A stretch of DNA of 64,000 nt, from sequence record PQ287649.1. The stretch is one strand, 5' to 3'. The position numbers and the translations under genes are program-made. This document shows positions 2,547-43,495 of the stretch, in pieces; position 1 is the stretch's first letter; every line of letters begins with the position of its first letter. Below the pieces are notes generated by a model. That model did not search any database. It saw nothing but the letters and a program-made list of their open reading frames with translations, and was not told the origin of the DNA. The stretch is from Pseudomonas phage HHBS47_1.

Positions 2547-4874
2547 ATGGACAATATTGAATTTAATGCTTATCTGACTGACGTGTTTCGTCTAGTCAGA
2601 ACCATGGTCATCAAAATAGAAGCCATTGCCTTACGGGATAACAAAGTCCTGGAGGAAGCGGGTTATCCTGTCGGGTTGGATAAAAGGACCTGGCGGTACT
2701 ACATGAACCTGAATGGGGACTACCACCCCAATGATCAGATCATGACCATTACGTCGATTGATACCGGTGACGAAATTGTCTTCAATAAAGACAACTTGGT
2801 GACCCATTTAGCGACGGCCAGGGAGTATGCTACCGGGGGCTATTGGTTCAATCGCTTGGTTGAACGGTACCCGGGACAAGCCGAATTGATTCGCGGCATT
2901 ATTGCACCGATCCCCTACGAGGAGACCATAGAAGCCGAGGACTATAAGATCCTCAAATACAATAAGGCTTTGGTGCAATGGAATGAGGACCAATTGATCC
3001 CTCAACTCCAAGCTTGGATCTACAGTGAAGTGGAACAAGTCTTCCGCCACGAATACCGGTTAACAGATGACTTGATGCTCCCTTTCGGGATTATGTTGCT
3101 GTATGCTGATCTGTTCAAAGCCATTTGTACCATTCGGCATGAAGCCATTGGGACGCGGTATGCTCACGATTTCTATATTTGGAGTCACATTGATTCCTAC
3201 GGAGCGTTCTCCAAGTACAAGGAAAGTTTAGACCGGTATCAAACCATGTGGTTGTACCGCAACATTGCGTGGATTGTTAACAACCCCGGTCAGCAGTATA
3301 CCTTTACGAAGTTGATGGACAACCTCCTGACCCACGCTCGTATTCCCCTGGCCAAGTTCGATATGGTGGAGAATACAGCGAATCAGTTGGAAGAATTGGT
3401 TCCCAATCCCCTGTACCGTAGGCTCCAGCTTAACTTGCAGGAAGACTACGGTCGAGAAGCCACGTTTATCGATACCCAACACATGATCGATAAACAACAA
3501 CCCTTGGCAAAAGAGAACCCTAATCAAGCGTCCATGTACTATCACGACGCGTTGCAGAAAGGGAAACACAGTAACCATTCTGAACTGCCCACGAAGACGT
3601 TGGAATCCAAAATGATGGATTACACCAACCGTCACATCGATACCAAGATGTCGGTGGTCTTTAATGAATGGATTTACTTAACCGCTAAGGGGTACTTTAA
3701 AGGACGTATTCTGGTTACCGATCCTAAATCCGGTAAACAGGTCAGACTCCCGGTTGGGGATGCCTACTACGTGTGGCGGTACTTGGTTGACTTCGCTAGG
3801 GATCAGACACCGGTTAACATCTGTCCAGCGTATTACCACAACGTATTGAAAGCGGTTCCTCCCACCCTGGAAGCCTTGATTGATATTGGGGGTCCTTCGT
3901 TCATTACGCCGATTATGGCGTATGACGTCCGTAACGTGTGGATTCCGGTGAACACCTTTATTGCACCGGAATACCTCATGGCGTATTCTGAAGAAGTCTA
4001 CGCACTCATGTGGAAACACAAGAAGATGTCAAGTCAGTTCTACGACTTGAACATGCGCGCGCGGATGGAGAACACCACGAAGTTCATGTACGAGTCTGGA
4101 ATCGCTACGATCACGGACTTGACTACCTACCAACAACTCCTGAACCGGTATGAGTTCGACTTTACGGAATACACCCCGGAAGAAGCCCGTAACTTTGCCT
4201 GGGAGATCTTCAAACGCATCACCGGCTGGGACAGCAACAATAACCCGTCCTTGAGGATTAAACAGTCAAACCTCATTGATATCATGATGCAGCTGTCGTC
4301 TTACACCATCCAAGTCATTAAGGAAATCGATGACGGTACGGACTTAACGGAGCTCCCCAGCGAGATCTTTATTGGGGATCCCCGGTGGATTGGGAAGGGG
4401 AATGGTGCCTTCGGGGATTACACCCATGTTCAGATGGATGTTCCCACCCATTTCGATGGTGTTCGTACCGTTGAAGAGGTCCACCCCCTGGTCGAACCTA
4501 TGGTCCCTGAGGTGGCAGCGATTGCAGAAGGGTATGGGGAGGCGCGTAGTGATGATATCTTTGAACGGGTGGATCTCAGTACCAACCTGTTGGACTATGC
4601 AGTTCGGATAATTGATGACTCCTATTTCAGGCTGTTACCAGCAGATCGTATGGGCCTCCCTGAAACTAATTATGGACGTCTGGTATTTAAAGAGCTGCAT
4701 AAGGAAACCTCCGTAGGTCCAGCGGACTATGGTCGCCTGGTGTTTAAGGCGCTGAGTCCCCCGACGGTGATTGACCCAGCCAACTACGGTAGGCTGGTCT
4801 TAAGAGGGCCGGTTAAGGCGATCACTCCTACTCGCCGCGGAAGACTTCTATTTAAAGACGTTAATAAGGACTAA
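2547..4874 (+). CDS. Hypothetical large virion-associated protein (776 aa) with four C-terminal tandem (N/D)YGRLVFK repeats
   Basis: Long ORF, in frame with track ORF 2487..4874. First ATG after the divergent upstream gene is at 2547 (MDNIEF...). C-terminus reads ..NYGRLVFKELHKETSVGPADYGRLVFKALSPPTVIDPANYGRLVLRG..RRGRLLFKDVNKD. Confidence 0.7.
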   Translation: MDNIEFNAYLTDVFRLVRTMVIKIEAIALRDNKVLEEAGYPVGLDKRTWRYYMNLNGDYHPNDQIMTITSIDTGDEIVFNKDNLVTHLATAREYATGGYWFNRLVERYPGQAELIRGIIAPIPYEETIEAEDYKILKYNKALVQWNEDQLIPQLQAWIYSEVEQVFRHEYRLTDDLMLPFGIMLLYADLFKAICTIRHEAIGTRYAHDFYIWSHIDSYGAFSKYKESLDRYQTMWLYRNIAWIVNNPGQQYTFTKLMDNLLTHARIPLAKFDMVENTANQLEELVPNPLYRRLQLNLQEDYGREATFIDTQHMIDKQQPLAKENPNQASMYYHDALQKGKHSNHSELPTKTLESKMMDYTNRHIDTKMSVVFNEWIYLTAKGYFKGRILVTDPKSGKQVRLPVGDAYYVWRYLVDFARDQTPVNICPAYYHNVLKAVPPTLEALIDIGGPSFITPIMAYDVRNVWIPVNTFIAPEYLMAYSEEVYALMWKHKKMSSQFYDLNMRARMENTTKFMYESGIATITDLTTYQQLLNRYEFDFTEYTPEEARNFAWEIFKRITGWDSNNNPSLRIKQSNLIDIMMQLSSYTIQVIKEIDDGTDLTELPSEIFIGDPRWIGKGNGAFGDYTHVQMDVPTHFDGVRTVEEVHPLVEPMVPEVAAIAEGYGEARSDDIFERVDLSTNLLDYAVRIIDDSYFRLLPADRMGLPETNYGRLVFKELHKETSVGPADYGRLVFKALSPPTVIDPANYGRLVLRGPVKAITPTRRGRLLFKDVNKD
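4660..4865 (+). repeat. Four tandem ~20-codon repeats encoding the (D/N)YGRL(V/L)FK peptide motif at the 3' end of the 2547..4874 gene
   Basis: Direct reading of the translation. The same motif (DYGRLEFK) ends the unrelated 42860..43495 gene. Confidence 0.8.
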
Positions 4875-4888
4875 AGGAGAAGAGTCTA

Positions 4889-5287
4889 ATGACCAAAGAG
4901 TTGAGACTCATTAAGGAGTCTTTTTGTCGTCTTCACGGGTTAGATAAGGCAACGGCCTTGAACATTGAGTATCAAGGCCGTAATCCCGCCACCCTCAATG
5001 CGATGTTTATCCTTCACGGGGACGACATCCCTTGCATGCGGTATGAACACGAACGCATCAGTTTGACACCACACACCCTGAATCGTTCCCTGGACCTTGA
5101 CAGCAGTCTTAAACTCCACCGTTCTGATATTAACGCTGAGATGATCAGCGCTTGGTTTAATACCCATACGAACGAATCCCTGCTGCCCCAGGACGTGGGT
5201 AAACTCATTATTGGAGACCGCGTAACAGTGATCTGTTCCACGGATTCTATGCGCTTTAAGCACTCCTTTTCGATGGCTTTTAAATAG
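4889..5287 (+). CDS. Hypothetical protein (132 aa)
   Basis: ORF with AAAGGAGAAG RBS 7 nt upstream of the ATG. Part of a tight co-directional cluster. Confidence 0.65.
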   Translation: MTKELRLIKESFCRLHGLDKATALNIEYQGRNPATLNAMFILHGDDIPCMRYEHERISLTPHTLNRSLDLDSSLKLHRSDINAEMISAWFNTHTNESLLPQDVGKLIIGDRVTVICSTDSMRFKHSFSMAFK

Positions 5288-5295
5288 GAATCACC

Positions 5296-42697: not shown

Positions 42698-42708
42698 GGG
42701 GTTTGTAA

Positions 42709-42750
42709 AGGAGTAGTGGGGAAGACCCCTACTCCTTTATTTTTTTTTTT
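42709..42750 (+). terminator. Strong rho-independent terminator
   Basis: AGGAGTAGTGGGG-aaga-CCCCTACTCCT hairpin followed by TTTATTTTTTTTTTT. Confidence 0.85.
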
Positions 42751-42859
42751 AGGAAATCGATGGATGACGAAGCATTTGAAGGAGGTAACATCCTATGCAG
42801 TGAGTCTTGTAACTTCTTTTGACTTACTCCCATTGGACCACCTTTAAGAGGATAAAGCA

Positions 42860-43495
42860 ATGGCTTCAAACCTTCCAATCCAAACGATCTTCCTCGACAA
42901 GTTCGTCGAGTTCAACAAAGACCGCTACAAAGACCAGGCAGAAATGCTCGCCCTCTTTGAGGGTCTGACCCTCGCGGACATCACGATCTCCGACATCACC
43001 GCTGACGGCACCAACCCCGAGCTGCAAAGCGCCACGGTCACCTCTGTGAGCCGCAACTTCAGGGGTGTCGAACAAAAATGGCTCCCGGCGAACATCAACA
43101 CTCCGTTCGCCTTCGTGGTGGTGAACAAAGGCGCTCCCCTGACCAGCGAAGCCCAACTGGCCGATCAGACCACCCCGGGCGCCTACGTTTACCTGGTCGG
43201 TGAAGGCGAAGAAGCGGTTCAACGCGTGGGCCTGGTACTGGCTTCCACCACCACCACTGAAACCCAGGCCGCCGACGCCCTGGCGCTGTTCAAGGCCAAC
43301 TTCGAATACGTCCTGGACGACGCCGATGTCGATACCGCCACCGCCAAGGTGCTCAAGGTAACCACCAACCCGTTCACCCGCGGCGAGCTCGTGTACGAAA
43401 TTGGTAAGGCTCCGATCATCGAGATTCCGGAAACCGACTACGGTCGTCTGGAATTCAAAGAAATCACTCAGCCCGAACCCGAACCCCAACCGTAA
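42860..43495 (+). CDS. Hypothetical protein (211 aa), GC-rich and codon-biased, paralog of the 55182..55763 gene, with C-terminal DYGRLEFK motif and a Pro/Glu tail
   Basis: AAGAGGA RBS. N-terminus MASNLPIQTIFLDKFVEFNKDRYKDQAEMLALFEGLTLADITISDI aligns with the minus-strand protein at 55182..55763. Ends ..ETDYGRLEFKEITQPEPEPQP. Strong C-ending codon preference. Confidence 0.75.
   Translation: MASNLPIQTIFLDKFVEFNKDRYKDQAEMLALFEGLTLADITISDITADGTNPELQSATVTSVSRNFRGVEQKWLPANINTPFAFVVVNKGAPLTSEAQLADQTTPGAYVYLVGEGEEAVQRVGLVLASTTTTETQAADALALFKANFEYVLDDADVDTATAKVLKVTTNPFTRGELVYEIGKAPIIEIPETDYGRLEFKEITQPEPEPQP

Follow-up and report, generated by a model that had tools for sequence, protein, structure and literature searches.

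A proposed C-terminal docking peptide shared by a baseplate wedge protein, a small virion-type protein and a predicted frameshift extension of the capsid protein in EL-like jumbo phages

In chaperone-usher pili a terminal peptide of one subunit fills a site on the next subunit, by what is called donor-strand complementation, and phages T7 and T3 make a minor capsid protein (10B, beside 10A) by a -1 frameshift near the end of the major capsid gene. The frameshifting in gene 10 of T7/T3 is mentioned in PMC4283147. Closer to our subject are the DUF7941 proteins (PF25613; gp22/gp23 of Goslar, gp126/gp127 of phiKZ), which consist of an N-terminal domain with a disordered linker and sometimes a C-terminal domain, are present in hundreds to thousands of copies per virion, are predicted by AlphaFold3 to bind one another head-to-tail via the disordered region, and of which one was filamentous in electron microscopy (bioRxiv 10.64898/2026.04.21.720040). 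The baseplate wedge protein of phiKZ, gp128, is present as one copy together with two gp87 in each wedge heterotrimer, where it helps to form the core helical bundle (PMC13250141). Here we describe, in a 64,000-nucleotide stretch of Pseudomonas phage HHBS47_1 (PQ287649.1; this whole stretch is called the window below), a short C-terminal motif with the consensus I/L-P-x-T-[D/N/Y]-Y-G-x-L, in the window [D/N]YGRL[V/E]FK, which is carried by a baseplate wedge protein and by a small, otherwise unrelated protein, and which we propose to be a docking peptide, or handle.

The window shares 97% identity with Pseudomonas phage EL and with seven EL-like isolates, and its position 1 corresponds to about 108,060 of EL, an Elvirus and a nucleus-forming jumbo phage with a nuclear shell protein and PhuZ. 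The two carriers are homologues of EL gp104 (2547..4874) and EL gp147 (42860..43495), the gene of the latter lying directly downstream of that of the GroEL-like chaperonin gp146. An original prediction, made from the letters of the window, had placed the motif at both C-termini, and translation bears this out: the 211-amino-acid (aa) gp147-like protein ends in IPETDYGRLEFKEITQPEPEPQP, and the four tandem units of about 20 aa foreseen at the end of the wedge protein are there, spaced by 19, 19 and 17 aa. Two details had to be corrected, as the wedge protein between the same coordinates has 775 and not 776 aa, and Y-G-R-L is present in three of the four copies, the fourth having no Tyr. The two genes comprise the following features.

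2547..4874, plus strand: baseplate wedge protein, homologue of EL gp104, 775 aa (by homology; gene 97% identical to EL)
4659..4694, plus strand: handle copy 1, PETNYGRLVFKE, 10 of 12 residues identical to the gp147 tail
4716..4751, plus strand: handle copy 2, GPADYGRLVFKA (translation)
4773..4808, plus strand: handle copy 3, DPANYGRLVLRG, its PANYGRL identical to the EL capsid -1-frame peptide described below
4824..4859, plus strand: handle copy 4, degenerate, without Tyr, TPTRRGRLLFKD; EL has PSGRLQFKD here
42860..43402, plus strand: globular domain of the gp147-like protein, residues 1-181 (AlphaFold2, profile search), the proposed receptor of the handle
43403..43495, plus strand: C-terminal tail of the gp147-like protein, residues 182-211, and stop (translation), conserved at the extreme C-terminus of homologues
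43427..43462, plus strand: handle of type A, PETDYGRLEFKE, in this tail (translation)

The best 12-residue match between the two proteins, with ten identities, compares with 40 shuffles that peak at 5-8, and a shuffled window proteome gives 0.02 comparable pairs between proteins. In a six-frame scan of the window the strict pattern P-x-[TSA]-x-Y-[GSD]-x-[LIV] occurs only at the two termini, and the same scan of the rest of EL gave no further match. The looser [DNY]YG.L adds a copy just past the capsid gene (PANYGRLEY) and two internal matches, about the number expected by chance.

Residues 1-596 of the wedge protein, a functional counterpart of T4 gp7, are homologous to phiKZ gp128 and Goslar gp35: in a PDB sequence search solved chains align with this part, namely 9xqs_C (PHIKZ128; 6e-78) and a chain of 803 aa (4.5e-89), which is also the length of Goslar gp35. 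The EL clade differs in its clade-specific C-terminal 180 residues (about 597-775), which stay outside the matched part, hold the motif copies and end in tandem handles that the wedges of phiKZ and OBP type do not have; in OBP-type wedges (38% identity) no C-terminal copies were found at all. The four units are only 47-67% identical in DNA, YGRL being kept with different, synonymous codons, and Tandem Repeats Finder detected no DNA-level repeat in the wedge tail; the copies are thus maintained at the protein level and are not a leftover of recent duplication.

The same conservation is seen among relatives. Homologues of gp147 at 46-56% identity terminate in PPTDYGRLEYPEP or PETDYGQLVYPEP, and IP-x-TDYG-x-L is likewise the ending of some 30 family members that are more distant. 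Nearly all of 21 wedge homologues from IMG/VR (43-98% identity) carry one to four C-terminal copies, namely 18 out of 19 that have complete ends; the exception among the complete wedges is L060, and at one locus the sequence breaks off too early. Within a genome, the motif variants of the wedge and of the capsid extension described below change together: contig 3300038441_000574 has GTYYGELFAD and GTYYGELEED on the wedge and STYYGEL in the capsid extension, contig 3300029990_000049 has RTYYGLLTPP and STYYGLL in these places, EL has YGRL in all three carriers, and EL-type genomes have YGRL on both wedge and gp147. The motif lies outside globular domains, is kept in spite of diverging flanks and occurs in unrelated proteins, as a short linear motif should. 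That it is under selection and functional we regard as well supported, and the earlier idea of a common docking, targeting or processing signal gains support from conservation, from co-variation within genomes and from a third carrier.

This third carrier is the -1 frame at the end of the capsid gene. The gene lies outside the window and its sequence was read from EL and relatives, so that the evidence for it rests on these genomes. The six-frame scan of EL located PANYGRLEYPELP in an open frame of 28 codons, which has an overlap with the 3' end of the major head gene, gp78. The capsid frame of EL ends in …GAC CCA AAC GCC GGT CCG TGA, in which C_CCA_AAC is a classical X_XXY_YYZ heptamer, and a -1 slip on it is predicted to replace the last three capsid residues by RRSVSPANYGRLEYPELP. 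A slip-prone site stands one to three codons upstream of the capsid stop in every EL-clade relative examined. Of the capsid loci from IMG/VR, at 51-100% capsid identity, all 21 complete ones have the -1 open reading frame (ORF), and another two break off short of the gene end; two cultured phages have it as well, RisingSun of Erwinia (PKRLIPSTNYGRLG) and FishSpeaker of Shewanella (PKSINPYYYGNLG…). The heptamer is in the capsid frame in 13 of the 15 distinct lineages, as C_CCA_AAC, C_CCA_AAT, A_AAA_AAC or G_GGA_AAC. The ORF has no start codon, overlaps the capsid gene by 13-223 nucleotides (nt), opens exactly at the heptamer in RisingSun, FishSpeaker and two other lineages (L016, L021), and ends 14-22 codons from the slip site in every lineage. 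It was not found in Vibrio phiKT1019 and Aphrodite1, Klebsiella Miami and N1M2, Aeromonas PS1, and OBP; the distant Vibrio, Klebsiella, Aeromonas and OBP-type phages, having neither wedge handles nor the capsid -1 ORF, were dismissed as carriers.

The -1 frame shows an amino-acid identity of 0.53, versus 0.33-0.34 in the other frames, its third codon positions vary most, and the codons for Y, G and L differ by synonymous changes only, the Gly of Y-G-x-L being written as GGT, GGG, GGA or GGC and the Leu by five codons, while the other two frames past the capsid gene contain stops. In all eight EL-like genomes the capsid 3' region is kept at 97-100% identity. The peptide encoded in the -1 frame is under purifying selection. 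One could still think that the ORF is never translated and that the conserved post-stop sequence is an RNA or DNA element whose likeness to the motif is coincidental, since hairpins overlap the region, no classical stimulator or product is known and two lineages are without the heptamer; such an element would not explain the codon periodicity with its four Gly and five Leu codons, peptide variants that match the wedge variants of the same genome, or an end of the ORF at 14-22 codons from the slip site, and we consider this account very improbable. That the ORF is translated we hold to be well supported; that this happens by frameshifting, which would add the motif to some capsid copies, we infer from the sequences.

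As in T7 and T3, a -1 slip few codons before the capsid stop would extend a minority of the subunits. The differences are that the extension of the EL clade has 14-22 residues against about 50 in T7, that its motif is shared with baseplate proteins, that the slip site is C_CCA_AAC, that the phage is an unrelated jumbo myovirus and that the product is a predicted one. Full-text searches of the literature available to us found no report of frameshifting or readthrough in capsid genes of jumbo phages. In PV472050.1 (MIZ-Pa99, about 89094..89234) and PQ516283.1 (vB_PQ1, about 115231..115371) a separate 'hypothetical protein' is annotated over the capsid 3' end and -1 ORF; gene callers apparently see an extra coding signal past the capsid gene without joining both.

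In the phiKZ clade the end of the capsid gene has another form. The capsid genes of KTN4/phiKZ, PS119XW, 201phi2-1, D6 and Noxifer, all five of those compared, end in TGA, past which another 26-28 codons without a frame change make up a conserved extension of tandem [F/Y]-x-E-[D/N]-G-[T/S/N] units, for example AGKGYRYLENGTIRYLEDGNARKLEE, in which two Leu codons differ synonymously.

21806..24049 of locus L082, minus strand: capsid gene of KTN4/phiKZ, with TGA and in-frame extension (found also in L083-L086)

This extension is probably reached by UGA readthrough of the major capsid protein, as far as its sequence tells. Its units resemble a second tail type of the gp147 family (type B, below), and no other copies of its motif were found within 25 kb around the wedge and capsid genes of phiKZ. 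Goslar too has a capsid gene that stops with TGA, followed by 28 in-frame codons, TTVAASLDDILDDNVADGFIAPDIHPAP (…DILDDNVADGFIAPDIHPAP). Its abundant DUF7941 protein gp23 ends in …VLADNVADGFVKPTVSVVG, and its wedge gp35 ends in tandem L-[DQRN]-G-L-[W/T]-x-x-P (NPLDGLWLAP, SLRGLTVTP, DLQGLWIEP, NPLNRLIVKP), so that Goslar shows the three-part arrangement of EL, there with a motif of its own. The Goslar preprint mentions neither a capsid readthrough or extension nor the repeats in the gp35 wedge tail. We may tentatively suggest, without calling it probable, that recoding at the end of the capsid gene gives some capsid subunits a short C-terminal handle across chimalliviruses, by -1 frameshift in the clade of EL, RisingSun and FishSpeaker and by UGA readthrough in the phiKZ clade and Goslar, and that in the EL clade and Goslar (this was not found in phiKZ) the handle has the sequence of the tail of an abundant small module protein and of the wedge repeats.

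The module protein of the EL clade would be gp147. Its gene in the window has the strong codon bias ascribed to it by the original prediction, with an effective number of codons (ENC) of 37.1 and a GC content at third codon positions (GC3) of 0.74, the most extreme of 28 window genes; second in bias is a 404-aa ORF at 31748..32962 on the plus strand (ENC 41.2, GC3 0.67). Neither gp147 nor its paralogue in the window has a Pfam match at E<=1. A profile search over 1.84 billion representative proteins retrieved 93 relatives, mostly of 185-225 aa and some of 500-660 aa, and gp147 shares an N-terminal domain of 150-180 aa with the paralogue and with longer virion proteins. Homologues lie on phage contigs of 200-240 kb. 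The family is unannotated and limited to chimallivirus-type phages. Its tails are of two conserved types, A (that of gp147, IP-x-T-D-Y-G-x-L, frequently a few residues from the C-terminus) and B ([Y/H]-D-G-x-[Y/F]-x-[Y/H]-D-G-[T/S]-x-x-Y). A few members bear neither, and since members without the motif exist, the domain folds independently of it. The paralogue, presumably EL gp156, had been placed at 55182..55763 and described as lacking the motif; it has indeed no type-A tail and carries a conserved tail of its own, and the correct coordinates lie on the minus strand, the plus strand being interrupted by stops.

55182..55775, minus strand: paralogue of 197 aa with the same globular domain as gp147 (hidden Markov model match at 5e-60; alignment)
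55223..55185, minus strand: type-B tail of the paralogue, FNGQFRYDGTLTY, a tail type common to about 25 family members

A six-frame search of the window and the remaining EL sequence found these two family members only; their genes are not adjacent to the wedge gene, unlike the arrangement in phiKZ and Goslar. According to PMC6034870, mass spectrometry revealed gp207, the member of the family in RisingSun, and likewise its counterpart in EL. Both carriers in the window are thus of virion type, the wedge by homology to solved structures and gp147 by the mass spectrometry of a family member.

An AlphaFold2 model of gp147 from 68 family sequences has a predicted local distance difference test score (pLDDT) of 95.6 and a predicted template modelling score (pTM) of 0.84; it supersedes a first run with 6 sequences (pLDDT 61.7, tail of low confidence). 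In this model the tail (residues 182-211) has no secondary structure and yet reaches a pLDDT of 84-96, that is, it is predicted to be docked against its own globular domain. Foldseek against PDB gave no match with either model, and an early assumption that the domain equals the N-terminal fibre domain of phiKZ gp131 stayed unconfirmed; in BFVD every structural match with a named organism is a jumbo-phage protein, several RisingSun and Joad paralogues among them.

From what has been said we lean, with modest assurance, to the view that the gp147/gp156 domain binds the motif as a handle and that anchor points are provided by the wedge and by frameshifted capsid protein. On this proposal, three kinds of virion protein of the EL clade would bear the short docking peptide: the wedge with one to four tandem handles on its C-terminal tail, gp147 with a handle that ends the short tail following its globular domain (about 180 aa), and a fraction of the major capsid protein, which would gain it by the -1 slip on C_CCA_AAC few codons before the stop. 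The globular domain of the gp147/gp156 family would bind the handle, for example the peptide IPETDYGRLEFKE; gp147 would attach to the handles of wedge and capsid and, as it bears a handle of its own, could recruit further gp147 copies head-to-tail; the gp156 paralogue, with the same domain and a different tail, may link other cargo, for example fibre proteins of the adjoining operon. We infer this receptor, and the chains growing from wedge and capsid anchors, from the monomer model and by analogy with Goslar. Such a polymer, grown from an anchor by a peptide-in-site logic, would recall donor-strand complementation, as an analogy only. Among the docking options named earlier, partner binding and incorporation into the particle are favoured, with a putative partner, and nothing found supports recognition by a protease.

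The DUF7941 proteins resemble gp147 in several respects. They are small, abundant virion proteins confined to chimalliviruses, with an N-terminal domain and a flexible tail; the gp147 models have a domain (1-181) and a tail without secondary structure, the distribution of the gp147 family is likewise limited to chimallivirus-type jumbo phages, and the predicted placing of the gp147 tail on its own domain is compatible with head-to-tail binding. The Goslar motif differs from that of EL in its sequence. Homology of gp147 to DUF7941 was detected by neither Pfam nor hhalign, and phiKZ gp127, as the query of a word-indexed search, brought up just one protein, nearly identical to itself. A 175-aa PhiPA3 structural match was considered as a gp126 homologue; its gene is not next to the PhiPA3 wedge gene. 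The two DUF7941 proteins phiKZ gp127 (L082, 14174..15046) and PhiPA3 gp146 (L091, 4730..5551) end in …NINGRLLIHYN and …VVGQLLIHYD, respectively, a conserved G-[R/Q]-L-L-I-H-Y terminus that is reminiscent of Y-G-R-L.

A number of observations weigh against the proposal. None of the 68 gp147-family members matches the DUF7941 Pfam model, which does recognise the positive controls phiKZ gp127 (7e-28) and gp126 (9e-10), and hhalign of the family (68 sequences) with phiKZ gp127 gave a probability of 0.2%, in a comparison of low sensitivity with a single-sequence template; as the family is not detectably DUF7941, the parallel with Goslar is an analogy. The wedge homologue L060 and RisingSun gp207 are without the motif. 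Two of the 15 capsid lineages have no classical heptamer and only ACC_CCG_TAA, a canonical frameshift stimulator 5-9 nt after the slip site was not found, and the hairpins about 20-30 nt past it range in z-score from +0.6 to -4.4, their geometry not being conserved. The AlphaFold2 model of gp147 is a monomer of a single chain, and the docked tail could be an integral element of the fold and not an exchangeable ligand. On the question whether the capsid C-terminus faces outward, the sole hint is that a Goslar capsid protein with a C-terminal green fluorescent protein fusion still localises like capsids.

The modelled tail also bears on the idea that motif copies bind one another in a homotypic beta-strand zipper, which would link the carriers, baseplate parts to capsids for instance, or cluster particles. 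Y-G-R-L-V-F-K does alternate hydrophobic and polar residues like a beta strand, avidity is expected from tandem copies, and self-recognition would equally predict co-variation of the carriers; the tail is, however, packed against the globular domain in the model and forms no strand there, and in many family members the Leu of Y-G-x-L is the very last residue, too little sequence for a zipper, so that we regard it as the least probable of the explanations considered.

A different thought is that the motif is no virion joint and is instead a tag for a non-structural factor, be it the chaperonin gp146, an assembly chaperone, a protease or sorting in the nucleus cycle. The position of the gp147 gene directly downstream of the chaperonin gene speaks for it, as does the fact that all carriers are late structural proteins that need cytoplasmic assembly. 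Tandem copies on the wedge and an expected sub-stoichiometric addition to the capsid fit poorly with a tag for folding or cleavage, though, and the motif is unlike the site of the phiKZ-type head protease, S/A/G-x-E. With a model that docks the tail on gp147 itself and with the same three-part arrangement in Goslar, there on a family reported to be highly abundant in virions, we find such a tag improbable.

The surroundings of the paralogue gene are of interest for the possible partners, as it opens an operon of fibre type on the minus strand.

47344..55166, minus strand: fibre-type gene set downstream of the paralogue (PHROG matches)

The set codes for a lipase-like protein (480 aa), a tail fibre (1046 aa), the virion protein gp155 (500 aa), a protein of 227 aa and a Kelch-like propeller (308 aa); we see it as context and as a possible candidate cargo of the handle system. 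It also lends something to the view that the motif is a handle whose receptor is a third protein, a peripheral-baseplate, fibre or decoration one, with wedge, gp147 and frameshifted capsid protein all as its clients: propeller and fibre proteins are encoded right beside the paralogue, conservation and co-variation would fit any co-evolving partner, and C-terminal peptides of phiKZ gp26 insert into other baseplate proteins (PMC13250141). The propeller (47344..48270, minus strand) was considered as receptor and rejected, as its homologues are confined to P. aeruginosa jumbo phages (EL-like, PA5oct-like), which makes it an unlikely conserved partner, and it is absent from the Erwinia and Shewanella relatives that bear the motif. 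No other candidate with a matching phyletic distribution was identified, and the gp147 domain is the only surface predicted to contact the motif. A third-protein receptor is in our opinion unlikely, while deserving more weight than the tag or the zipper, and we retain the gp147/gp156 domain as the preferred one.

Several further observations concern the neighbouring genes. In the Kelch-like protein residues 59-307 have 38% identity to a protein of PA5oct-type phages, which are unrelated jumbo phages of P. aeruginosa, and the first 58 residues are EL-specific; it looks, by this mosaic, like a host-range module swapped between phage families. The tail fibre (50566..53706, minus strand) and the lipase-like protein (53724..55166, minus strand) have a near-identical N-terminal N-x-Q-A-R-V-L-D-A-R-T-R-x-L at residues of about 40-60, a common segment that may be an attachment region. 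PHROG family 21620, a 616-aa virion protein, joins a gp147-like N-terminal domain to a gp155-like middle region, modules that in EL are separate genes (48999..50501, minus strand, and 42860..43495). Far from this operon, two neighbouring plus-strand genes for proteins of about 1190 aa (10724..14278 and 14334..17915) have the common local segments IPPGISGSFEGLGG and IPPSIDGSFEGLGG at the same position, which suggests that they are paralogues.

The extension of the T7 gene 10 capsid protein by -1 frameshifting and the head-to-tail modules proposed for DUF7941 were known before. The unannotated gp147 family, the occurrence of one peptide on the wedge, a small protein and a recoded capsid end, and the recoding of capsid genes in several chimallivirus clades appear to be new. 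At present annotation pipelines miss the extended capsid protein. If our proposal is true, it would explain how a nucleus-forming jumbo phage anchors an abundant accessory protein, with one handle written in three ways. Should the wider suggestion on capsid recoding across chimalliviruses hold, the filament 'cloud' that has been proposed would start from the capsid surface too, and not from the baseplate alone. The 'fibre cloud' proposal for chimalliviruses would gain a defined peptide, anchor sites and a slip-site mutation, by which it becomes directly testable, and the handle could be used for the display of cargo on these virions. It would also add a conserved recoding event to the capsid genes of phiKZ relatives, phages that serve as models of the phage nucleus and as therapy candidates, and the wider suggestion, if true, would mean that a conserved layer of virion architecture has gone unrecognised in a heavily studied phage family.

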